DNA of 63,677 nt, the filler included, from Stramenopiles sp. TOSAG23-3 (lineage: Eukaryota): assembly GCA_900128585.1 (NCBI GenBank). It is 5 parts of 5 records of this genome, joined end to end, with 100 filler letters (N's around TTAATTAATTAA, not from the genome) between each part and the next. Parts side by side here need not be neighbours in the genome. Positions count along the whole stretch, not along the records: positions 12,788 to 25,453 come from LT642670.1; 4 more parts are not named here. One strand, 5' to 3'. Each line of letters starts with the position of its first letter. The stretch's first letter is position 1. The translations under genes were made by a program, and so were the position numbers. The notes beneath the pieces were generated by a model that worked only from the letters and a program-made list of their open reading frames with translations, was not told where the DNA came from and searched no databases. This document shows positions 2,410-25,453 of the stretch, piece after piece.

Positions 2410-2874
2410 ATTATCTTCTTCGTGTAATGGCTGTGATTTTTTCGTATGATTATTAATTTTTAACATTCTTTTTAGTTACGAATACCACGAAACACAAACT
2501 GCCGCGAAAGATAATCCACAATTAAGGACATGTACCTCCGGGATAACGATGTGAGACCCTTCGGAATCTAAGACGACTATAGATATCATATACATTTGCA
2601 AGTAAAAAATATTTATTTTTATCAGGGTGACACAATGAAAAATAGTTATAATAACATTAGAGAGCATAGACTAAACGCTCGACCAGTTGAGGAAAAGTAG
2701 TGCCCATCGTGAATATATAATGTGTGTAAAAAAGAGCGAGTGCAATTTCTTCTTTTTACAGGTTTTTCTTACGTGTATATATTTTTGCTCTAATAATATA
2801 CAACAAAACGATAAAAATATCTTTACAATAACAATTACTGATTTTACTTCTGAACATCAACGGCTTTCGCCACA

Positions 2875-4218
2875 ATGTCTCAGGCACAACGAAAGTGCAA
2901 TGTTTTAGAGACTATTTTTGCGCAAGCGAACATTACCGTAGGCGCATGTGTTGGTTTTGAACGCCCATTCCAAACCCATGTTGTCCAAAGGGCAATAAAA
3001 GGCTGCTTGGACGCAAGCATTTGTGGTTGTACGAAAGTTTCGGGGGTTGGTGGCACAGACGCATGCATACTGTCCCTGCGCAAACCGGGCGAACGGGTCG
3101 TCCGCACTATTTGCTACCCTGCTGGAGCGAACATTTCAGAAGCTTTTCAGAAGTTACTTGATATGCCCAACTCATTTTCTCCAGCCACGGTTGACGCCGT
3201 TGTTTTAGTAGAACCAGGCAACAATAACAACTGCCGTGGAGTTTGTTTCAACGGTAATCATTGCCTCTGGGACGGGAAAAGTATTGTTAATATCATCGAA
3301 ACCTTTGCGTCGTTGCTGTCACAGGCCAACGAAGGGGAGCTGAAAGACGTTACTCTGCCATCAAAAATATGCTATGAATGGGGTCAATTACTAAAAGATA
3401 ACATTGGAACACCACTAGCCACTCCCGCGTATTTGCCTATCGATTTTGAAAATCCAGGAAGTATAGTTACAATGAAGGATATACAAGTTTGTTTTAACGA
3501 AGAAAAGAAGGACAATTATGGAGTTTGTGACGTTAGAATTGATTTTGAACCAGAATTGTTTAAAGGCATACTGGGCTTGCTGCGCAGAAAACAGTCTGGG
3601 TCTTTGACAGGTCTTTTGACTGTTTGCCTTCAACAGGCGCTGGGGGAAATATGCTTGTCTCCAAAATCTGAGGGTCCTAACCGTTTTGGGACAAGCTGCA
3701 ACATTGCCACAAGAATATTGGTTGATTTGAGACAGGCGCTTGGAAACGATGTGGGCAGAGACAATCATATATCCCAATGTTTTGGAAATGTTATTGTTGG
3801 GAATACCATAAAGCTGCTGAATGACACAGACGGCCCTAATATTTTATTGGAACTATCCAAATCAACAACGTTGGCCTTAAGAAGTCGTATTGCGAGAGGC
3901 GAAGCGAATGCAGCGAGTCTAATTTCAAGCGAAGGAAACTTTAATGATGGACAGACGGACCATGCAACCTTTGAAATATCTAATTTTGGCATTTATGATG
4001 TTGGTGAAGACACTGTCGTATACCACACCCAACGATATGAAGGATATGATGGCGTCAGTATCTTAACGCACAGTGAAAAAATCAAGGGGGTCTTCCGTCT
4101 AGGAGCATCACTGATGGGCCCCATCAACCCAAAGCTCATCGCGACTGCCTTGCGGCGCACTAAAGAACTTTTCCATGTGCTGCTTGCAAAGGAGAACAGA
4201 GAGCCGCAGCTGAATTAA
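2875..4218 (+). CDS. Putative CoA-dependent acyltransferase / condensation-fold protein
   Basis: 447-aa ORF with an HxxxDG motif (NHCLWDG) at the expected position, plus later VDLR and SNFG segments typical of alcohol acyltransferase/PapA5-like proteins. Confidence 0.55.
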   Translation: MSQAQRKCNVLETIFAQANITVGACVGFERPFQTHVVQRAIKGCLDASICGCTKVSGVGGTDACILSLRKPGERVVRTICYPAGANISEAFQKLLDMPNSFSPATVDAVVLVEPGNNNNCRGVCFNGNHCLWDGKSIVNIIETFASLLSQANEGELKDVTLPSKICYEWGQLLKDNIGTPLATPAYLPIDFENPGSIVTMKDIQVCFNEEKKDNYGVCDVRIDFEPELFKGILGLLRRKQSGSLTGLLTVCLQQALGEICLSPKSEGPNRFGTSCNIATRILVDLRQALGNDVGRDNHISQCFGNVIVGNTIKLLNDTDGPNILLELSKSTTLALRSRIARGEANAASLISSEGNFNDGQTDHATFEISNFGIYDVGEDTVVYHTQRYEGYDGVSILTHSEKIKGVFRLGASLMGPINPKLIATALRRTKELFHVLLAKENREPQLN

Positions 4219-8313: not shown

Positions 8314-8975
8314 CATAAGTTGGCGTCTAACCTTGAAGTGAGTAAAGTCTATCGCTATTAGACTGTTTGTAATTAAAAACCAGGCGACGGACGGCGTTGG
8401 TATTAATAATAGTCAGTCTACCCAAGTCGCCTCTATTAAATATGATTTGTTAAAGTATTCCTTAAATTATAATGCAGTCGGACGGACACTTCTTCTTCTA
8501 TTATTTAAATACGTTTTAAACTTTAAATAAAATTAAGAAGAGAAGAAGAAGAAGAAGAAAAAAAGGAATCTTCTTCTTTCATTGCTTGTTTCTATTGGCT
8601 GTTAAATTATTACTACTATTTATGTGTAGTCTAATATCTAATACTTCTATTAATTATTATATTTTTTATATTAAAATATGAAATAATAATTATTAATAAA
8701 ATAAAAAATAATTTTAAAAAAAATAATAATGTAAAATTATAATATTTTTAAATTAAACAAAAATTGAAAATTGAATGAAACAATTTGGTAATGGTCATTG
8801 TAAAATACATTTTTATACAGCCAGTCTATGTAATGATACCCCTTCTATTCTTATCGATTATTGACAAAAAAGAACAGCGTCTGTTAATTTGTTTTTATTT
8901 TTTTAAATTCAAATCTTTTAGTACCCAACCGTCGCATGCACGCAACGCCTAGTTCTCACGCTTACGCTGCTCAAA

Positions 8976-10835
8976 ATGTCGATACCCTGGGACGTGGCCT
9001 CTCGAATCACGTTCGACTTTGAGGAAGTGCTTGCGAGCCAGTCGGTGGAGAGCAAAGAGAACGATGAGTGGAGGCAAGAGAAGAAGGAGGAAGACCAACG
9101 TTTCAAAACGATAGTATGCCGGCACTGGCTGAACTCGCTGTGCCAGAACGGCGAACACTGCGACTTCCTTCACAAGTACGTTCCCGAGAGAATGCCCGAG
9201 TGCCGAAAGGGGGTGGACTGCGACGACCCTTTGTGCATCTTACGGCACATGCGCGACGAAGACAAGAAGAAGTGCCTCTTCTTCTCACAAGGGTTTTGCC
9301 GGCACGGGCCAACGTGCAAATTTTTTCACGAAAAGCTGGGCCCGGACAAGTGCCCGGAAGTTTCCGACTTCAGCACGCCCTTTGACGACGCCAACAAGCC
9401 GGGGGAGGGAACGGAGGTGGCGGACGCCGCGCAGAAGTTCGACCGCAAGGCCAACTGGCGGACGCAGATGTGCAAGCACTACGAAACGACGGGGGCGTGC
9501 CCGTTTCAGACGACGTGCCACTATGCCCACGGCCCCGCGGAGCTTCGCTCCCGGGATCAAAACATAGCTGAAGGGATAGGAACGAAGGAGGAGCTAGGGA
9601 TCGCCGACGACGCTGGGAGCCCGGCGGAAACGTTCGACAAAACGCCGGATGGGATCGACACCATCGTCGTCATGTCGAACCTGAGCCGGGCCGGGGGCGG
9701 GCACGGAGACTACGGGGACGCCGTGCGAAAGCTGGCTCGGGACCTTCCGGACCGGCGGGGCCCTTGCAAGTACTTTGTCGTGCGGGTGCCCGACCCGACG
9801 TACCAGTACCTGGTGGTGTCGGTCAAGAACGGCGTATGGGCCTGCCCGGAGGGCATGGTCGACCAAATGAACGAGATCTTCCACACCCACGACAACGTCT
9901 TTCTCCTCTTTACCGTAGAGGGTTCCGGGAACTTTCAAGGCGTGGCGCGGATCAATGGGCCTGTGACAGGGACGAACGGGAAGGGGGGGCTGGGACAGAG
10001 AGAAGGGTTGACGGCAGTGTTCCCTGTGCAGTGGCTGCGGTTCTGCCAGCTGCCGTACGAGTTTATTGGAAACCACATCGCGCCGCTGCCGACCGGTACC
10101 CCAGTGCAAGATGCGCCCAACTACACCGAGCTGGGCAGGGACACGGGTCTGCACATGGTCGAGCTCATGTACTTGCAGGACGAAGTCCAGTTCGACCCGA
10201 GCCTCATCGAAGTAATCCCCGAGAAGTTCAAGGGCTGGGAAGGAACCCGTGGCTACACAAATCCTGCCACCCAGACCGGGTTTCTCGGCACGGTCCCCCG
10301 CACGGTGGCCAGCACCAACGGCACGAACAAGTTGCACTGGGTCAACGGCCCTGGATTCATCGTCGGCTGCGATTCGTACATTATCGACGAGTGCTTCGGC
10401 AGAATGGTCTTTGGCATGCCTGAGAGCTACCGGGGCCAGTCCCGCTTTATCCACAAAGGGAGCACCCTGCTGTTGTTCCACATGCATGCCCGGAAACTGC
10501 TTGGCGTCTTCGAGGCGACGTCGAACCGTCCCGCGCTGATCGAGCCGAATGCATGGGCCCCGAACGACCAGAGCGTCAGCCCTTACCCTGTACAGATACG
10601 ATTTCGCATCGTCTGTGAAACCCCGATGATGGAGGAGGCGGAAGTCGCCCAGCTCTTGCCCGATTCCAACGAGCGAGTGAGAAGGGTCGAGCAGGACAAA
10701 ATGCAAGAAATTGTGGATATCTTTGTACAGAGAGGCGGGGGAATAGAAGAAGTTGCGCGGCGAAACAAGATGCCCCTCCCGAATGGGGTGGTTCCTGCAG
10801 GGCAGGAAGAAGAGAACACTACAGAAGAGGCGTAA
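8976..10835 (+). CDS. CPSF30: CPSF30-like CCCH zinc-finger protein with an extra CCCH finger, YTH domain and C-terminal DCD domain
   Basis: KTIVCRHWLNSLCQNGEHCDFLHKY..RMPEC is the CPSF30/Yth1 finger array. A TTP-like finger follows (WRTQMCKHY..C..CHYAHG), then YTH (KYFVV..SVKNGVW..VFLLFTVEGSGNFQGVAR..FPVQW) and DCD (GFIVGC..ECFGRMVFGMP..LLGVFEATS..IEPNAW..YPVQIRF). Confidence 0.85.
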   Translation: MSIPWDVASRITFDFEEVLASQSVESKENDEWRQEKKEEDQRFKTIVCRHWLNSLCQNGEHCDFLHKYVPERMPECRKGVDCDDPLCILRHMRDEDKKKCLFFSQGFCRHGPTCKFFHEKLGPDKCPEVSDFSTPFDDANKPGEGTEVADAAQKFDRKANWRTQMCKHYETTGACPFQTTCHYAHGPAELRSRDQNIAEGIGTKEELGIADDAGSPAETFDKTPDGIDTIVVMSNLSRAGGGHGDYGDAVRKLARDLPDRRGPCKYFVVRVPDPTYQYLVVSVKNGVWACPEGMVDQMNEIFHTHDNVFLLFTVEGSGNFQGVARINGPVTGTNGKGGLGQREGLTAVFPVQWLRFCQLPYEFIGNHIAPLPTGTPVQDAPNYTELGRDTGLHMVELMYLQDEVQFDPSLIEVIPEKFKGWEGTRGYTNPATQTGFLGTVPRTVASTNGTNKLHWVNGPGFIVGCDSYIIDECFGRMVFGMPESYRGQSRFIHKGSTLLLFHMHARKLLGVFEATSNRPALIEPNAWAPNDQSVSPYPVQIRFRIVCETPMMEEAEVAQLLPDSNERVRRVEQDKMQEIVDIFVQRGGGIEEVARRNKMPLPNGVVPAGQEEENTTEEA

Positions 10836-12787: not shown

Positions 12788-14551
12788 AGGGACAATACAA
12801 GAGGGACCAGGTTCACTGAAATATCATCTTTGAAGGAGTTTGAGACATGGACCGAAACGGTCCTTCTGGATGTACTGTTTGGTTCGAATACATGCGAAAC
12901 TTTACTGTTCTCCCCTGACCAGGTTAACAAAAACTGTGCCGGTCTAATGACCAGAAAGATTGTGCTAGACAAAGGAGGCACGAACGAAAACATGCAGTTC
13001 TGGGAAGACCCAACGTCAGAGTGCTGCATTGTGTACTGCGACTCAAAGTTCCAATTTGTTGGACGCCAAGCAGAGTTGCACACGAAAAACATATCTTGCT
13101 CCACTGATCCATTGGAAACATACCAGAGCACAGCAGGGGGCGTTTATTTTGAAAACACAAAGTTAGAGGGTGCCCAGGTAAGTTGCATCCCAGGACCCTT
13201 CAATTCCGGCTCCATGTTTGTGATTGGTGAGACCGTTCGAATACGGCATGCTACACTGGGACCATTGGCCAACAAAAGATGCAACGCATACCCAGGGTCC
13301 CCGGACTCAACGGTCTGCGCACCTGTCTACCAACCCGATCGAAGGGTTGTATTAGGGTACGACTTTAGCAATGAGTGGAAACAGCAATGGTTAGGCTCGC
13401 GGCAAAACATTAGTGGGGTAAAATATATAAGTGATTATAGGCCATTTAATCCTTCGACAGGTCGGCACTACCCTTTGGGCGGTAACGCGTTTGATTTGTC
13501 AATAAAGAACAAAAGCAGTGCGCTTGAAAAGCTAATATCTGCACGACGGGCAAAATGGATTAATATTCCTAACGGGGCCCAGGCCGCGTTTGTAGAACTG
13601 GCCGTGTGGGTTCCACGAGCACATGTCTTACTTCCAGTACGTCTGACCGTGGAATTTCAGGCAGGGGGGAGGGCTTTGCCGAACGCCATGGCCACTGTAT
13701 TCCCAGTCCTGAGCGAAATCACCAAGCCGCCAGGCACTGCATGGAATGCTTACTACAGCATCCTGGTCGCCTTGCCATTAATGAAGGAAGGGGCACAGCT
13801 TGCCATAGAACGGTTGGGTTATTTTAAAAACATATGGAGTTTGTTGGAACTGCTTGTGATCGGTCTTACGTTGTTTTTTCTCGAGTGGTACGAAAACACA
13901 ATAACTGCTGCACAAGCCATTACAATTTCCTCGGACACTTACAACCAATTCGAAACTGTTGAAATACGCTTGAAATGGCTGAATTGGGGATGCGGGATTG
14001 GCATGACTCTTATGGTGTTTCAAATGCTTGAGACGTTCAAAACACTTGGCGACCCGTATGGATTGCAGATAGCAGGCATAATGATGACCATGTCCAGAGA
14101 AGAAATTTTAGGCATCTTAGGTCTAGTTTTTGGCATTGTGTTTGCCTTTTCATACGGACAATATATTACGTTTGGCGCAGATGTAGAAGCTTACAACAGT
14201 ATTGCTTATGCCTTTGAGAGCATGTCGTTTGTAATGTTTGGAGAATTCGGCAATCAACTGGACGAGAGTCAGAAAATTTGGAACGCTTTTGCAACCATTG
14301 TGTTCATGATATTTGTTCTCTTAATTGCCCTTGTAATGATGAACATCCTCATTGCACTTGTGGGAACAATGTACGAAAGCAGTTTGGAACTGGTTGCACT
14401 TGAACGGGATATGAATCGATTTTCTCAAAATTTTCACAGCATAGAAGAAACTTCGGCGGGCAGCGCGACGGTCGGCAAGCCCAAAAAACTGGTGGAGATC
14501 ATTGCAAGCATGATGGGGGACAAGCGACGTCATTTGTCAGCAAACTATTAA
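12788..14551 (+). CDS. Polycystin (PKD2/TRPP-like) cation channel, 5'-truncated by the contig end
   Basis: Frame is open from the gap edge. TOP-domain-like WI..AAFVELAVW..VRLTVEF..GG; YFKNIWSLLE; pore region FGADVEAYNSIAYAFESMSFVMFGEF; S6 FVLLIALVMMNILIALVGTMYE. Confidence 0.85.
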   Translation, partial: RDNTRGTRFTEISSLKEFETWTETVLLDVLFGSNTCETLLFSPDQVNKNCAGLMTRKIVLDKGGTNENMQFWEDPTSECCIVYCDSKFQFVGRQAELHTKNISCSTDPLETYQSTAGGVYFENTKLEGAQVSCIPGPFNSGSMFVIGETVRIRHATLGPLANKRCNAYPGSPDSTVCAPVYQPDRRVVLGYDFSNEWKQQWLGSRQNISGVKYISDYRPFNPSTGRHYPLGGNAFDLSIKNKSSALEKLISARRAKWINIPNGAQAAFVELAVWVPRAHVLLPVRLTVEFQAGGRALPNAMATVFPVLSEITKPPGTAWNAYYSILVALPLMKEGAQLAIERLGYFKNIWSLLELLVIGLTLFFLEWYENTITAAQAITISSDTYNQFETVEIRLKWLNWGCGIGMTLMVFQMLETFKTLGDPYGLQIAGIMMTMSREEILGILGLVFGIVFAFSYGQYITFGADVEAYNSIAYAFESMSFVMFGEFGNQLDESQKIWNAFATIVFMIFVLLIALVMMNILIALVGTMYESSLELVALERDMNRFSQNFHSIEETSAGSATVGKPKKLVEIIASMMGDKRRHLSANY

Positions 14552-14944
14552 GAAAAGCAATTTTTATTAACAGTGCACCACTAATGTGTGGTTGAAAACA
14601 TGTAACACTTACGAAAAAACTTTCAGGACTTCTATAAGGCTCTTCCTGTTTTTCATGCCAGCAAGACATGATTGCAAGTAGCATGGCATTTGTCTCGCTG
14701 ATTGTGTAATCCATAGCCCTGATTCCTGGCGTGTGTTTTTTTGGTGTTTTATTTAGCATCTGTTCCAGGTAACCCCCTAACTTTTTCCTTTCCTCAAGCA
14801 CTTGGTTTTTAAACAAATTTCTATTGTTTGGAAGCACACGCAGTCGCTTCAGCTTGTTTACCTGCTTTTTTGATGTTCTTGGTGTCTTTGTCATGATTGA
14901 TAACGACGATAAAGCTTTCTGTATACACTCTTTATGCTCTGACT

Positions 14945-15258
14945 CACAGGAAAATGATTACAAAGAATGGCAGCGACGATTCGGACGCCAATCCACTCGA
15001 CGCAACGACCTGTTTCAGGCGGAACGCCGACGGTGGGCGTGCGTTCAGAAGGAAGAGAACGGACTTTACTTGCTCGACGCTGAAATGAAGCACGAAATGC
15101 GCCGCGAAGGCGTTGTACCGAACCTATGGGTCTTCCCAGACAAGATGGGCATCTATGTCAACATGGTAGGCGAGCACCAGATGGACTTCGGCAAGCGTGG
15201 TCCACTTGCCAACGAGAACCGTGAACGTGGCGACCTCAAAGCCACCTTTCGTGGACTG
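14945..15258 (+). pseudogene. Possible endogenous viral fragment resembling part of a mirusvirus-type (HK97-fold) major capsid protein
   Basis: GC-elevated island translating to DYKEWQRRFG..DLFQAERRRWACVQKEENGLYLLDAEMKHEMRREGVVPNLWVFPDKMGIYVNMV..GP..TFRGL. Recognised from memory only; no plausible N- or C-terminus. Confidence 0.45.
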
Positions 15259-15842
15259 GCGGGGCTCTTCATAATGCATGCATGAACCATTTTCCCGCCA
15301 AATATGTATGCCCTATATGCTGCACTGATGTAATGAGCACTTTAGGTATTTGAATTTGAATGTGTAAAAAATCAAAATGACTGTTTGTTCCAACAATTTC
15401 ACTCATAGGAACGTATGCCACAAATGTGCAACGTGCATCAATTTGTATTATTATATTATTTATTATTATTACTACTACTACTACTACTACGACGACGAAT
15501 TATTTGTATTATTATATTATTTATTATTACTACTATGATGAAGGAAAATAATAAATAAGAAGAAGAAAAATAAATAGACTTTCTTCTACTACTTCTTCTC
15601 ATGAGAATTTTTTGCATCATCAGTTGTTATTTTTATCTTCGCAACAACCAACAACGTCTACCTGGTAAAAATAATATTTAATACAATTATTACATACTGT
15701 AAATGCACTTATTTACCTATATAATAATTATTCCCATAACCGGAATCTAAAATCGAAACCTATTCAATGCTTTGGAGCTCGTATTTAAAATGTAAATCTC
15801 ATAAAGATAATTGAAAATAAATTATTTATTTTAGTTACTCTC

Positions 15843-17168
15843 TCATTTTTTAGTGTACAATTTGTTCGACCACTCAATTTCCAAAATTTCTCCTTCCACC
15901 GTTGCGCAGACAGAGTCTCTGTGGTTATGGGGTGTTAAATTAGCAAAATGCATTTGCGAACCTTCTAAAGGGTTAAAGCAATTGATTTGTTTCCGTTCTT
16001 TGGTGTCCCATATCTGAAGACCACCATAGTCAACCGATACCATGACTTTTCTGTAAGAAATTGGGAGTATTGAAAAGACTGTCCTGTTTATAGGTAGTGA
16101 CCACAGGATGGCTGCGTCTGCATTCTTGCAATGCAGGCGAACACCAAAGCAACAGTTGTCTTTTAGCATCTTAATTATACGGCTGTCGTTACCAGTAAAG
16201 CTTGCCCCACGCGTCCCAACGATAACCTCGTCGTCTGACAAAAACTCCATGCACGTTAAAAACCGCTCTCCTAACCACGATTGGTCAATATGATTAACTA
16301 ACGTCCACTCACTCGAACCTTTAATTGTTTCTGCGAAGACGAAAATGCCGCTCTTTTTCGTGCAACACACCGTCGTGCTGCCTCTTGTCCTCAAACAGGT
16401 CACCGCCATGAACAACCGCTTCTGTTCCAAGTGCAGTTGGGCCAAATCAAACAAGTTCCAGGAGTGCAGGACTTCGATTCCATAGCCTGGTCCGTTGTTA
16501 ACGACCCTCGCTAATCTAACACAACCCGATCCATCCCCGACAAAAATCTCAGCGGGACAACTATTTCGAGGGCACATGCTTCGGATGTGGGAATTGCTTA
16601 AATAGTGCCGGCGCCCTTTAAATTGCTCCATGGAAAAAACCGCAAGCTCGCCAGCTTTCGTTCCGCATACAAACAGCTGCTTTCCCTCCCCGTGGCCCAG
16701 TTTAAAGTCTATTACTACAGAGCACGTGTACGACGGAGTCCCTGACGTACCATCTTCCAGGTAAAGCTTCTGCTCTGCAATAATTATGCCAGTTTCTATT
16801 TGAACAACACTAGCATTGCCAGAAAAATCAATCATGCACCAAACGTCAACGTGTTCGCCCTCTATACTTCTATGCAAGTGAAACCCTGTTATTTTGTCAT
16901 CAAAGACGGAAGTTTGGTACTTTGCACTACCATTGGAATGGACCAGGCACCAGTAGTAACGGTTCAGGCTCTTGTATGTCCTCCCACTCGCCCAAAGTGG
17001 TTCCAAGCCTCTCGTTAAAGTATTCCACAGCAAACGGTTTATTCTACGACCGTTGCGCCTGAGTGCGTTCTTCCAGTCGCTACACGCACACGCGCAAGCA
17101 GACAGGTCTTTTGCGTCGAGGAAGGTGCACGCGTGGACTGCGATGTCACCGCCCAGGTTTTGCAGCAT
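15843..17168 (-). CDS. F-box protein with a C-terminal WD40-like beta-propeller
   Basis: N-terminal LGGDIAVHACTFLDAKDLSACACACSDWKN fits the F-box consensus. Beta-rich repeats follow (GTKAGELAVF, GDGSGCVRL, GGLQIWD). Confidence 0.75.
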   Translation of the reverse strand: MLQNLGGDIAVHACTFLDAKDLSACACACSDWKNALRRNGRRINRLLWNTLTRGLEPLWASGRTYKSLNRYYWCLVHSNGSAKYQTSVFDDKITGFHLHRSIEGEHVDVWCMIDFSGNASVVQIETGIIIAEQKLYLEDGTSGTPSYTCSVVIDFKLGHGEGKQLFVCGTKAGELAVFSMEQFKGRRHYLSNSHIRSMCPRNSCPAEIFVGDGSGCVRLARVVNNGPGYGIEVLHSWNLFDLAQLHLEQKRLFMAVTCLRTRGSTTVCCTKKSGIFVFAETIKGSSEWTLVNHIDQSWLGERFLTCMEFLSDDEVIVGTRGASFTGNDSRIIKMLKDNCCFGVRLHCKNADAAILWSLPINRTVFSILPISYRKVMVSVDYGGLQIWDTKERKQINCFNPLEGSQMHFANLTPHNHRDSVCATVEGEILEIEWSNKLYTKK

Positions 17169-17935
17169 GTTCTAATAATACATTGATCGGTCTATAGTTT
17201 GAAAGCTGTCGAAATTGTTCATAAAATGAATAAAACAATAATGATCTGTTACATGACTTATGTATGTCATTCTCTGAGTATTTAAACTCTGTTGGTGGAA
17301 AAAGAATATTATTATTATTATTAATTTTTTATGATGAAGAAGTAAGTTATTATTATAAATAATAGTCGTCATCTTCTTCTCCTCAGTCTGACGATGAAGA
17401 ATGAAGAACAACAACAACGAAAAAAAGGGAAGAAGAGAAGAAGAAAAAAGGGAAGAAGAAGAGAAGAAACCAACACGCTCGCATCTCAATCAAGTCCTCC
17501 TTCTTCTATTTATTATTATATTAAATTATATTTCAAAAAAAAAATAGAAAAAGAAAAGAAGAACATCATCATCGTGTGATGAATGAAGCAAGAATAATAA
17601 TAATAATTTTTTTTTTAATAATATTATATTATAACGTACATAGAAGACACAAAGAGTTTAGTTATAACTGAGCATTTGCATTTGACATTTTACAATTAAA
17701 CGCTGAAATAACTCGGGAAAACACTAATAGGTTTCTCGTTTTGTTCTGTGCAACGTGCAACGAGGGTTAATTGGGTGAAACGCACAGCCCTGTCCGTGTT
17801 AAACTGGCGGGCTCCATAATTCGGCGGAAAACGGGCCGGTTGGCCGGGGCCGTTTGCAGGGGCGATGAGGAGGGGAAAGAAGGGGGGAAACGTAAAAGAA
17901 ACGGGGCAAAAACATGTTTAGGTGCATTCGGTTTG

Positions 17936-21747: not shown

Positions 21748-24738
21748 TTATGTAGTCGTTTCCTGCCCCTCCCTTTTCTTTCCTTTGTCTGCTGCACTGA
21801 GTACTTTGCGTATAAGATCACAGCTAATTTCGTCCCACACTGTCGCATCGCTTTGTTGTCGCACCAGCAGCGGCAAACCGCCGACGGGTTTCTTCTTCTC
21901 ACCGGTGCTGCTCTTTTTCATATAGTCCGATAATATCTTTACGGATCGTTGAATAAATGAATCAAACACGGGTATCTTCACAGTCGGTCGCCCCAACCTG
22001 GCCTCTCGATTGTCTGTGTCTGATAGTATTTGCTCCAATGTTTCTCTCACGTCTTGGGGCAAAATGTCAGTATCGTCCTTTCCGATACATTCTAACTGCA
22101 TCTGGATGCTGTATGGGAGGGGCCATATGCTAATAGCCTCATCTTCGGCCCCGTCGGTTTCCTTCCTGGCTACCCACAACGCCATCAATATACGGCGAAT
22201 GACGTGCAAGTACTTTTTGCCTAAAACTTTCCCACTCTCTTTCCGAGAAATGTATTTTGCATAATTTTGTTTCGCGTGAGAAATACAGCACCATATAAGC
22301 GACCGTGCCTTGTAGCGGTCTCTCATGGTATCCCGCACGCACTCAACCCAGTCGAACTCGACGATTGCATAGTGGATATAAACTATCGGGGAGAAAAAAA
22401 GCTCAAACATGGTCAAATTGGAGGTGCTCATCATTTGGAAGCAATGGGAGCACTCTTGCCCGACAATGTCGATTTCTGGGGTGCGGTTTGAGACGTCCTT
22501 GGCGTACGTCATGCGAAAGTTCTTCGAAAACGATTTCATCGAGAAATATTTGTTGCACTGGTGGACAAATATACAGTATAAGTCGTGGTCTGAATTTGAA
22601 TGCGCAGTTCCCAGACTCCGCGAGGACAATTCAGCGGCATAAATTATTTTTATTTCTAAGGTTTTCTCGATCTCCCGCAATCGCTCCATGATGACGGCCC
22701 TTGTATCAGCATTTGGGGGACTGAAAGAGAGCTTGCTGCTGCCATGTTTGTCGTCTGGTTCCAGGTTCAGTTCTACGGTGTGCTCGTCGATGCCACCGTC
22801 CCCCACGGCAGTATTGATTTGATAGTCCGTAAAGTACTGCAGCCGCACCGCTTTCAATATTTTCATTAGCTTTGCCACATCGACTTCATCCCTTCTCAGG
22901 CTTTGTCCATTCTCTTTCCTCCTCTTGTCGACATCGTTCCATTCCTGCTTAGTTTCCTTCAACATACGTTCGGCTTTGGCTAACAAAACAGAAGGGTTGA
23001 ATTCCCCTGCCATCGGCCTTGTTTTTCTTATGCTAATGATGAACTCACGCTCGTCGCTTCCGTTTGGAAACCTGACTATGGGATCTTTGTAATGAACGAT
23101 TCTTTTCAATTCAAAGATTTTGTGGAATGCATGATAGAAGTACTTGGATATGCCGTTCTCAGCCTCATATGAAATTTTCTCCATCGTCGCTCCATCCGCG
23201 CCAAGGAATGGTCTTATCATCTTTCTTACTCTGTGCAGCCTTTCGCTGATAAAGCCAAGGTACTGAACTATGCAACGTCCTGTAAGGAAATCTTTGCGAA
23301 ACATTCGAAGTTTTGACCACAGCGGCGAGGCGTTGATTGCCCTGGACGGGGCAGCAAACAAGAATTCGATGTTCCTTGGGTTTCCTTTCGCCAGTTCTTG
23401 GAGAAAAAGTCCTACCTCCTTTCCCGCATATTCAACTTCGCCTGCTTTGTCCGCTCCCATGGGTTTCGCTACATGTCTTTCGAACTGTGTAGCGGGTGGT
23501 TTTGAACGAAGCAGCGCATTTGTTGGAGAAGTAAAGCAAATAAAATAATCTTCGTCGCTGCCTTTTGTGTCCAAGTTGTAGAGAAAAGACCCGCACCGGA
23601 TCATGAACGTAATTTCTGTCCCTTCCCCCAGCTGGCTGTGGATATTGCCGTGAAGATCTAGGCGGGCCAACGCAGCGCTAACGCTGCCCGACGCGGTTGA
23701 CTCTGGACCCTTGCCAGAGTAAGGTCCCGCTTCCGCAGCGCGGGATTGAAAAATGCTAGGTTTGCCCTGTTCCGCCAAAAGCCATGTTGCGCAGGTGGAA
23801 TGTCGTAATTCATCTTTCCATTTGCAACATGCCGTTTTTGTCCCGCTCGATACGTTGGCTGGGATTGCCTTTATTTTTTGGTCTTTGGACTTTGCTATCG
23901 TTTTCTTGTACAGTGAATTGAAAAATTCTACTTCTTTCAACATGATGGTCAATTCCACCTCTCTTGTTTCAGCGCTCCCCCCGCTTCGTCTGTTCTTTTC
24001 CTCCGTTGACTCTGCCAACATGAACGTCGATTCCACCATGGCACGAATGTGTGCTATCAAATAGTTGATAAAATTTCTCATGTCGCTGTACAACGCGTTT
24101 GGAATGTCTGAAAACTGCGAATTCCTCACGTTCTTCAGCAGCCCATAAGCTTGGCCGAGCAGGGATTTGAAGAAACAAATGCTTCCTTTAAAACTGCCCA
24201 GCACCGATTGCGCTATCAACGTTTCACGAAGATTTAGCCACTCCGGCGACGCGAACAGCACTTGCAGCGCTCCCCCCCCGTCGCCACTCCTATTTGTTCC
24301 TTTATACAAATACCTGTCCCCTAGCAGAATCTCAATAATTCGGGCGTCCCCTTTAAGCAGTTTGGTGACAACTTGTCCGATTTCTATGAACGTAATGTTT
24401 TGGATGCTATACTCAAGAATGCTATTTTGTCCTTTGGCCACTTTCTTGTCGTGCTGGTTCTGCTTTGCCAAAATGTACTGACTCAGTGTCTTTTTCGGAC
24501 TGTCAATTAACAGCTCTGTACATGCGGCCGCGTAAAAGGCGTACAAATGCCGCATTCCGCCCTTGTCCTGTTCGCTTGGAACGTTCGCTTTACTGATAAT
24601 ACTACTCTTGTTGGAACGGTACCTTGATAGGCATTTCATAAAGTATAGCTCATCGTCGCATAGCAAGATCAATTTCGCCCCGGCGTCCAAAAACTTCGTT
24701 TGAACGACTTGCGCGATTGCGCTCACTTGCTCGTTCAT
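21748..24738 (-). CDS. Multidomain RlaP/YcgL-type (PF10127-like) Pol-beta nucleotidyltransferase with three tandem domains
   Basis: Domain 2: GSFLYNLDTKGSDEDY..EVGLFLQELAKGNPRNIEFLF. Domain 3: IIYAAELSSRSLGTAHSNSDHDLYCIFVH..SNLTMFELFFSPIVY..KKYLHVIR. Domain 1: EIGQVVTKLLKGDARIIEILL..SPEWLNLR with no GS/DxD motif. ATG at 24738. Confidence 0.8.
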   Translation of the reverse strand: MNEQVSAIAQVVQTKFLDAGAKLILLCDDELYFMKCLSRYRSNKSSIISKANVPSEQDKGGMRHLYAFYAAACTELLIDSPKKTLSQYILAKQNQHDKKVAKGQNSILEYSIQNITFIEIGQVVTKLLKGDARIIEILLGDRYLYKGTNRSGDGGGALQVLFASPEWLNLRETLIAQSVLGSFKGSICFFKSLLGQAYGLLKNVRNSQFSDIPNALYSDMRNFINYLIAHIRAMVESTFMLAESTEEKNRRSGGSAETREVELTIMLKEVEFFNSLYKKTIAKSKDQKIKAIPANVSSGTKTACCKWKDELRHSTCATWLLAEQGKPSIFQSRAAEAGPYSGKGPESTASGSVSAALARLDLHGNIHSQLGEGTEITFMIRCGSFLYNLDTKGSDEDYFICFTSPTNALLRSKPPATQFERHVAKPMGADKAGEVEYAGKEVGLFLQELAKGNPRNIEFLFAAPSRAINASPLWSKLRMFRKDFLTGRCIVQYLGFISERLHRVRKMIRPFLGADGATMEKISYEAENGISKYFYHAFHKIFELKRIVHYKDPIVRFPNGSDEREFIISIRKTRPMAGEFNPSVLLAKAERMLKETKQEWNDVDKRRKENGQSLRRDEVDVAKLMKILKAVRLQYFTDYQINTAVGDGGIDEHTVELNLEPDDKHGSSKLSFSPPNADTRAVIMERLREIEKTLEIKIIYAAELSSRSLGTAHSNSDHDLYCIFVHQCNKYFSMKSFSKNFRMTYAKDVSNRTPEIDIVGQECSHCFQMMSTSNLTMFELFFSPIVYIHYAIVEFDWVECVRDTMRDRYKARSLIWCCISHAKQNYAKYISRKESGKVLGKKYLHVIRRILMALWVARKETDGAEDEAISIWPLPYSIQMQLECIGKDDTDILPQDVRETLEQILSDTDNREARLGRPTVKIPVFDSFIQRSVKILSDYMKKSSTGEKKKPVGGLPLLVRQQSDATVWDEISCDLIRKVLSAADKGKKREGQETTT

Positions 24739-25453
24739 CTTTGTCCACGCCTTTGGTATAGAATAAGTAGTTCTTGTATCTATTAAGTGGTATATCTTAC
24801 AATAATCAATTGGGTGAAAATAGTTTCCCTGTCTCGGTTTAAACAAATTATAATTATTAAATTCAAATGTTGAAGAAGTATTAGAATCTTTCTGGTGATT
24901 TATAGTTATAGTAGAAGAAACAAAAAAAGCATCAAAAACAACAAGTACAAAAAGAGCGGCGAGTAGAAGACATAATAATATAAGAAGGAAGTATAATAAT
25001 AATAATTCGACTCGAAGTACTATAATAATAACAAGTACAACACGGTATTAATACAAATAAATATAAGACGACAAATCAAAAAAGAAGAAGAAGAAGATCT
25101 TCTTTTTAAGTTTATTTCGAAATGCCTCCAAACCCACCGATTCCAAATGCTGTGCGCCTGTATATTATATAATATTAGTCTATTAAATATTTTTCTTCTT
25201 CTTTTTATTTTATAAAAAAATATTAATTATTTTTTTTTAAATTTAATTTTTTTCTGATGATGATGGATGATTTATTTTATAGTCTAGAAGAAGAACTCTT
25301 ATTATTTATAATAGTAGTCTAATACTAATACTAGTATTTACTTTTTTTTCTTCTTCAGCAGATTATTCTTGAGGTGGATATGTGATGTCTACTAGACTAT
25401 TTAATAGCTATAAATACTATTAATAAAATTTGGCAATTTTTTCTTCTTCTTTT

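Follow-up and report, generated by a model that had tools for sequence, protein, structure and literature searches.

Sequences derived from mirusviruses are already well documented as a class in the genomes of protists. A survey of 1,901 eukaryotic assemblies by Zhao et al. reports 541 mirusvirus capsid sequences, many of them short, which its authors read as decaying genes and used to propose hosts (PMC10827195), and whole mirusvirus genomes have been described from thraustochytrids, where Aurantiochytrium carries AurliV-1 as an episome and AurliV-2 as a chromosomal integrant (PMC12606086). Here we describe a locus that appears to belong to this class in Stramenopiles sp. TOSAG23-3 (GenBank assembly GCA_900128585.1), found in a stretch of 63,677 nucleotides made of five joined parts of this genome (hereafter, the window). 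At this locus an intact 300-nt piece of a major capsid protein (MCP) gene, probably of mirusvirus type, lies in the spacer between two cellular genes.

The piece resembles the entries of the survey in being mirusvirus capsid-derived sequence in a eukaryotic assembly, and, like the AurliV elements, it places mirusvirus DNA in the genome of a protist and so links virus and host. It differs from the surveyed sequences, as they are presented in PMC10827195, in comprising 100 codons only, in showing zero decay and in matching a marine metagenomic virus at the nucleotide level; the 85 best capsid homologues treated there, unlike this insert with its marine match, fall in clades distant from the marine reference mirusviruses. 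It differs further in that an allele with an empty site is seen, and in that the piece is nested in an orphan reading frame. AurliV-1 and AurliV-2 are described in PMC12606086 as complete, expressed genomes, whereas here there is a single 300-nt fragment with no other viral gene within 63.7 kb. What sets the locus apart is its freshness, seen as base-for-base identity with an environmental contig, together with an observable empty site and an uninterrupted copy of the target.

Limits and identity of the capsid gene piece

The locus had been picked out by a sequence-only reading, which quoted a peptide running from YKEW to FRGL in a GC-elevated island between two host genes and took it for a degraded fossil of the central part of a mirusvirus MCP. 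The peptide is present, inside a 130-codon open reading frame (ORF) that starts at the ATG at 14893, and so is the island: the GC content of 15000-15299 reaches 0.56, compared with 0.40 on the upstream side and 0.23-0.31 on the downstream side, and the flanking genes code for a cation channel and a WD40-like protein (Table 1). At the protein level, the viral codons are identical at 100 of 100 amino acids to residues 189-288 of the metagenomic protein P0003 (tblastn), and at the nucleotide level 14959-15138 match the viral contig L060 at 180 of 180 positions, up to the point where L060 ends. The left limit of the piece was placed at 14959, upstream of which the alignment with L060 falls to random level. 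On the right, all 38 blastn matches between the window and 62 viral or metagenomic loci lie within 14931-15258, and the alignment with the related loci L028-L031 drops in similarity past 15258, in agreement with the earlier observation that similarity stops after FRGL.

Judged from these comparisons, the piece is truncated rather than degraded, and the words "degraded" and "fossil" do not fit it. Since it is intact, it is very young, and the zero substitutions found wherever a comparison can be made point to a very recent viral capture. It corresponds to residues 182-281 of the 619-aa relative P0004, directly after a long helix at 146-177 in the model described below, and not to the central part of the protein as had been proposed; a full-length capsid ORF is absent.

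When used as a query, the piece gave matches at E<=0.01 to 94 of 121 candidate proteins, with P0003 as the best (1.2e-60), and at E<=1e-3 to 144 cluster representatives. The parent family comprises proteins of ~600-1400 aa, most full-length members of which are matched from ~160-220; among 75 representatives of at least 550 aa, the match starts at residues 158-220 in 54 and nearer the N terminus in most of the others. No Pfam or PHROGs family was found on the piece (taken as a 101-aa stretch) or on the 170-codon frame that is open from stop to stop around it (14773-15285, plus strand), and a tblastn search of a phage collection gave no match. Six full-length relatives were also searched against the 63.7-kb window by tblastn; since they match this place alone, with all other matches at E>1, the piece stands as a single isolated one, with no sign of a split or shuffled gene. 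The predicted chimeric ORF around it consists of 22 non-viral, 100 viral and 8 non-viral codons, and appears to have been created by the insertion.

Several extensions and alternatives to these limits were rejected. A gapped tblastn extension to 14860, with 17 gap positions, was discarded because the L060 DNA is at random level upstream of 14959; for the same reason the frameshifted string LTGK-DYKEW that the sequence-only reading proposed upstream is a chance reading, legible in the sequence yet without homology. The idea that the piece is an exon, with a 'cacag' acceptor at 14945-14949, fails on the absence of introns in L060 across residues 188/189 and of any other capsid exon in the window. 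Matches to designed pentatricopeptide repeat proteins, obtained in a sequence search of the PDB, are sums of weak matches whose best single stretch scores ~3 bits, and were attributed to chance. As a side observation, the motif at 15084-15137 (residues 45-62 of the 101-aa stretch) does mimic the consensus of these designed repeats, and when summed over eight repeats gives a misleading E of 2.6e-7 against PDB 4wn4, with ~3 bits per stretch.

We also recorded the GC content at third codon positions (GC3), which is 0.64 in the inserted piece, close to the 0.50-0.61 of the genes of the carrier, 0.51 in the L060 capsid gene (2467-3189) and 0.32-0.36 in the four neighbouring ORFs of L060; in the capsid genes of the related viruses L028-L030 it is 0.17-0.21.

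Table 1. Coordinates of the viral piece, the reading frames and segment around it, and the flanking genes, counted along the window.
Feature	Coordinates	Strand	Remarks
Viral piece YKEW...FRGL	14959..15258	+	300 nt = 100 in-frame codons; probable mirusvirus-type HK97-fold MCP gene
Chimeric open frame, predicted	14893..15285	+	ATG at 14893; 130 codons + stop; no Pfam family
Gene X, 3' part	14613..14957	-	90% identical over 115 aa to P0252 residues 28-142
Gene X, start	15264..15290	-	9/9 residues = P0252 residues 1-9, same frame
Presence/absence segment containing viral piece	14610..15781	.	1172 nt; X3 empty-site contig
AT-rich low-complexity repeats inside segment	15441..15605	.	61-nt spaced copies, TAC/TAT runs
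Polycystin-like cation channel gene, left neighbour	12788..14551	+	Pfam Ion_trans, PKD_channel, Polycystin_dom
WD40-like gene, right neighbour	15843..17171	-	weak WD40 beta-propeller matches

Continuity with cellular DNA

The channel and WD40-like genes are convergent, both being transcribed towards the insert. The other genes of the window code for ordinary cellular proteins, including a cullin (E 3e-205), a DHHC palmitoyltransferase and proteins with YTH/CCCH, WD40, ankyrin, BRCT/RING, Myb and EF-hand domains, so that the window reads as eukaryotic chromosome with compact, mostly intron-free genes and AT-rich spacers. No other viral gene was found in the 63.7 kb: in a tblastx comparison with 665 kb of viral loci, 176 of 179 rows fell in the piece and the other three were not credible.

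To relate the piece to its flanks, contigs of four public runs (X1-X4) were aligned to 14300-15900, with the low-complexity stretch 15443-15605 skipped. Stretches uncovered in X2-X4, ten further runs with shares of 0.23-0.27 and six RNA runs with small shares do not enter into the evidence. X1 holds 0.96 of the sampled window words. Its record 2 (1023 nt, 0 differences) covers 14493-15442 and spans both viral junctions as well as the left end of the 1172-nt segment that encloses the piece, while record 3 covers 15606-15900 and spans the right end of that segment. X4, a marine metagenome from another study, contributes record 11 (151 nt, 0 differences), which covers 14906-15056 and bridges the left viral junction. 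The viral sequence is continuous with cellular DNA on both sides. The link between island and flanks that the sequence-only reading had supposed is therefore seen at both junctions in X1 and, on the left, in X4 as well; on the right it is seen in X1 only.

Could the piece have been joined to cellular DNA by chimerism during assembly or amplification, in an infected cell or a mixed sample? The identity of the piece to free viral sequence is what such an artefact would give, and several features of the data weigh against a genuine insertion. All of the junction data are assembled contigs and not reads; the fullest support comes from one run, X1, which may be the source sample of the window, and no other run bridges the right viral junction or either end of the segment; the sole independent support for a junction is the one 151-nt contig of X4, at a depth of 2.7; and identity over 15139-15258 is established at the protein level only (P0003), since the donor DNA of L060 ends at 15138. 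An artefact would, however, need two chimeric junctions merely 300 nt apart, in X1 contigs whose depth is even across them (6.3, 6.7, 7.44), and would have to recur with 0 differences across the left junction in an unrelated metagenome. Moreover, 54 nt of an ORF are cleanly exchanged for the piece, which is what a real insertion is expected to show. We consequently regard a double chimera as very unlikely, and take the junctions to be those of an insertion.

Related capsid genes also occur free in these data. X2 and X4 hold one that matches the window over 14957-14991 only, with ordinary capsid sequence on both sides. In X3, record 9 (200 nt, 15035-15220) carries a synonymous T>C change at 15156 (TAT to TAC), and its end seems to contain a second copy of 14 nt (15202-15215); this contig may represent a free-virus variant or show an artefact of the contig end.

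Fold of the parent protein

Pfam searches of four full-length relatives returned chance-level rows only, and a profile of the family, searched by sequence against the PDB, found nothing relevant and no match to any solved capsid protein. We therefore turned to structure. An initial model, derived from 32 close sequences, had a low confidence (predicted local distance difference test, pLDDT, 50.7) and was replaced by an AlphaFold2 model of P0004 (619 aa), which is 94% identical to the 101-aa stretch, made from an alignment of 54 diverse sequences; this model reached a pLDDT of 80.9 and a predicted template modelling score (pTM) of 0.79. In it, the captured piece forms a mostly helical stretch directly after the long helix.

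Foldseek, which had been suggested as a check on a full-length homologue, was led by capsid proteins in both databases. It returned 94 PDB matches at E<=1e-3, the 42 listed being capsid entries of phages, archaeal viruses or herpesviruses, or encapsulins, and 137 BFVD matches at E<=1e-3; among the 50 BFVD rows listed, those with a name are capsid or head proteins except for three 'uncharacterized' phage proteins, and 15 are unnamed. In VIA-align, the model matched the HK97 capsid protein (1ohg_A) with a Z of 12.3 and 238 of 280 residues aligned, and the capsid proteins of human herpesvirus 6B (HHV-6B) and Epstein-Barr virus (EBV) each with a Z of 12.6 and with 441 and 446 residues aligned, respectively; 514 of 991 chains had Z>=8. 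On the strength of these matches, the parent is an HK97-fold MCP.

The MCPs of herpesviruses and tailed phages thus share the fold of the parent protein, with ~440-460 residues aligned for the former and ~240 for the latter. They are unlike it in having no match to it at the sequence level, and in that the viral genomes that encode the parent family carry replication and transcription genes resembling those of nucleocytoplasmic large DNA viruses (NCLDV). The Mirusviricota MCP is described as having a 'tower' insertion in its A domain that is smaller than that of herpesviruses (PMC10132985). P0004, at 619 aa against ~280 for HK97, aligns over 441-459 residues with herpesvirus proteins and ~240 with those of phages.

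The gene call of P0003 ends at residue 466, on a contig of 10.9 kb, and its relatives extend ~150 residues further; an intron or a break may lie behind this early end, and the virion genes of mirusviruses are reported to be intron-rich (PMC12768974).

Type of the donor virus

The capsid family was found on 25 loci of IMG/VR contigs measuring 17.9-372 kb. In three viral loci (L004, L022 and L007), where 37 ORFs were scanned, the neighbours of the capsid gene include DNApolB, heliorhodopsin, Arf/Ras GTPases, thymidylate synthase and Snf7, together with Terminase_6N, the large subunit of a T4-type terminase, and a match to Phage_portal that is weak. A 179-kb viral record, G001, likewise has DNApolB, RNApolB (2.9e-127) and Terminase_6N (1.2e-5). 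Mirusviricota are defined, in the account given in PMC10132985, by an HK97 capsid and terminase combined with NCLDV-like genes of replication and transcription, and their capsid tree was built from 701 positions (PMC10132985), which is consistent with proteins of this family's size. A transfer of heliorhodopsin between mirusviruses and eukaryotes has also been noted (PMC10827195). Taken together, the fold of the parent family and the gene content of the viral contigs support the proposal, made by the sequence-only reading, that the piece derives from the HK97-fold capsid gene of a mirusvirus-type virus.

A small residual chance, which we put very low, is left for the parent family being the HK97-fold capsid of some other, unnamed group of large eukaryotic viruses and not of Mirusviricota. 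Several points lend it weight. The assignment was made from genome features and fold, not from a named mirusvirus reference sequence or the authors' published capsid hidden Markov model, and the contig ids of the loci were not found in the searched supplements of PMC12768974 and PMC10132985 (files 13-17 of the latter lying outside the search). G001 has no RNA_pol_Rpb1_2 match, in a record rated 50% complete by CheckV, and no herpes-type DNA_pack_C match, although the latter search was blank in the control genomes too and shows little. Against this alternative stands the defining combination set out for Mirusviricota in PMC10132985, which is seen here as an HK97 MCP of 600-1400 aa with terminase, DNApolB, RNApolB and heliorhodopsin. 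The lack of a double jelly-roll capsid match and the origin of contigs of up to 372 kb from marine metagenomes also fit Mirusviricota as portrayed there; the Capsid_NCLDV search of G001, which gave no match, was blank in all control genomes as well and shows little by itself. We therefore keep to a mirusvirus-type donor in what follows.

Some details of gene order can be added. The capsid part encoded by L060, residues 1-241, is 99.6% identical to P0003 and is preceded by an Arf-like GTPase gene; L004, L022 and L060 all have such a gene immediately upstream of that for the capsid, in head-to-head orientation (coordinates of the arrangement: L004, 5845-6945 and 9277-9813; L022, 9252-9794; L060, 1836-2366). 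In L004 a gene for heliorhodopsin is found 3 kb upstream.

The interrupted reading frame and the segment that carries it

The viral piece lies antisense in an orphan ORF, which we call gene X and which occurs elsewhere without the interruption. The minus strand is open throughout 14610-14957 (P0251), and a TAA at 14958-14960 on this strand closes the frame of gene X where the viral piece begins. A search of 5.8 billion proteins with P0251 gave one relative, P0252 (a 154-aa protein encoded on a contig of 649 nt), to which both parts of gene X, on either side of the piece, can be matched (Table 1). Between the mapped parts P0252 has 18 residues (54 nt) and the window has 306 nt (300 viral plus 6), from which it follows that the viral piece was inserted, antisense, with the loss of ~54 nt. 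Past residue 142, P0252 carries a short tail; the same residues are obtained when the loose end of X3 record 7, which abuts 14613, is reverse-complemented and translated. Homology between P0252 and the window breaks off precisely at the edge of the 1172-nt segment, which means that this segment, or the source it came from, also occurs in a second genomic context; the loose end, of 30 letters, is absent from the window and the loci. Gene X has no Pfam family and received only low Atlas scores (first match 0.82, recognition 1443), and neither gene X nor the rest of the segment has a match in the 62 loci, IMG/VR or G001, or a relative among longer proteins.

The segment itself is variable. X3 record 6 (560 nt) joins 14300-14609 directly to 15782-15900, with 0 differences on both sides and a 2-nt 'TA' ambiguity at the joint. 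This is the empty-site form of the locus, and the insert is polymorphic, not fixed in the species. No contig in X3 bridges any junction of the filled form. The tail-to-tail spacer between the channel and WD40-like genes measures 119 nt without the segment and 1291 nt with it; five other tail-to-tail spacers in the window measure ~280-475 nt. A 'TA' stands at both ends of the segment (2-nt ambiguity), and a TA-targeting DNA transposon was considered and rejected, since neither terminal inverted repeats nor a transposase domain was found in the segment, and the window contains no second copy of it. Around the piece, inverted repeats of 11-14 nt with 86-91% complementarity do not exceed what chance would give.

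These observations can also be read in another way: the whole 1172-nt segment would be viral, gene X would be an orphan gene that the donor virus carries, and a single event would have inserted a rearranged piece of the viral genome, with the capsid part nested in gene X. A single insertion would explain both the empty-site form and the viral piece. In the composition of the rest of the segment (GC 0.39, and GC3 0.41 in gene X), GC3 falls between that of the window genes (0.50-0.61) and that of the non-capsid genes of L060 (0.32-0.36), and is nearer the latter. In X3, the contigs of gene X (records 7 and 8, depths 3.8 and 3.2) and of the capsid piece (record 9, 3.3) have similar depths, below that of the cellular flank (5.2), which fits an empty host plus free virus; and a gene with a single relative among so many proteins is what is often met with orphan viral genes. 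On the other side, gene X is missing from all 62 viral and metagenomic loci, IMG/VR and G001; simple sequence like that of the repeats inside the segment occurs in other intergenic parts of the window, so that they resemble its other spacers; contig depths of 3-5 are too noisy to tell two entities apart; and a capsid piece nested in another viral gene needs an extra rearrangement. Overall we find an entirely viral segment doubtful, if the most substantial of the alternatives considered here, and prefer the capture of the 300-nt viral piece alone, set into an orphan ORF.

Other features of the window

Two ORFs away from the locus may be mentioned. One, at 21748-25047 on the minus strand (1099 aa), has an RlaP domain (RNA repair pathway DNA polymerase beta family) matched with an E of 3.7e-34 in two stretches; as this domain is known chiefly from bacteria, the ORF may be a transferred or lineage-specific gene. 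The other, at 8922-10835 on the plus strand (637 aa), combines CCCH zinc finger, Torus, YTH and Development-and-cell-death (DCD) domains. Runs of N occur as four 44-nt pairs ~12.75 kb apart (12688-12731/12744-12787, 25454-25497/25510-25553, 38198-38241/38254-38297 and 50941-50984/50997-51040); they cut two long ORFs and have the appearance of masking or scaffolding, not of biology.

Discussion

Our analysis indicates that, very probably, a marine single-celled eukaryote has recently acquired, in its nuclear DNA, a 300-nt fragment of the MCP gene of a mirusvirus-type virus that circulates today. The fragment is set antisense in an orphan ORF, ~54 nt of which it replaces, and the 1172-nt segment that bears this ORF is itself an insertion/deletion polymorphism in a tail-to-tail spacer. 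Foreign DNA, whether organellar or viral, can be captured at chromosome breaks by end joining or template switching. The locus is like such captures in its short piece, its sharp ends, the 54-nt loss of target, the lack of transposon features and the 2-nt microhomology at the ends of the larger segment; it is unlike them in involving two nested events, the 300-nt piece and the 1172-nt segment, which may have come in either order. We infer that a chromosome break was mended, through end joining or template switching, with a fragment of viral DNA that was then in the nucleus; the break would have been at this locus, or else at a source locus from which the 1172-nt segment was later copied.

With 100 of ~620 codons present, no capsid protein can be made, and the insert is most likely a neutral by-product of break repair, not a working gene. 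There is a low chance that it does function, as a young segregating 'memory' of a circulating mirusvirus: convergent transcription, of the channel gene on the plus strand and of gene X and the WD40-like gene on the minus strand, could yield double-stranded RNA (dsRNA) against the capsid mRNA, or the chimeric frame (14893-15285) could yield a truncated capsid peptide that disturbs assembly, and carriers would then have dsRNA, small RNAs or a peptide that blunt infection, as a heritable antiviral protection. The perfect match to a circulating virus, the position between convergent genes, the antisense placement within an ORF and an open chimeric ORF with an ATG would allow this, and a presence/absence polymorphism is expected of a young, possibly selected allele. 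Yet a 100-codon in-frame piece is open by construction, and zero substitutions give no signal of constraint. If true, it would amount to heritable immunity from an endogenous viral element in a marine protist; we continue to regard the insert as most likely neutral.

Is the carrier also the host? Endogenous viral elements arise by capture at chromosome breaks, which is favoured by abundant viral DNA in the nucleus during infection. It is conceivable, if improbable, that the carrier is no host and that it acquired the piece from infected prey that it had ingested or from viral DNA in a free state: a 300-nt piece requires viral DNA in the nucleus only once, and the 63.7-kb window has no other viral gene. 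Capture at a break is, however, far likelier when nuclear viral DNA is abundant, as during infection, and the donor type and the carrier co-occur, X2 and X4 holding the related free capsid gene and X3 and X4 the flanks of the carrier. The protist that carries the piece is thus likely to be a host of the virus.

Little is known of the organisms that marine mirusviruses infect (PMC10827195, PMC12768974). Because the insert matches an environmental contig base for base and is still polymorphic, it points to a concrete present-day pair of virus and carrier, and this pair can be tested by single-cell, co-occurrence or culture work. The locus would also offer a view of viral DNA capture near its moment, with the filled form, the empty form and the uninterrupted target all open to observation, and in this way may inform how such elements arise.

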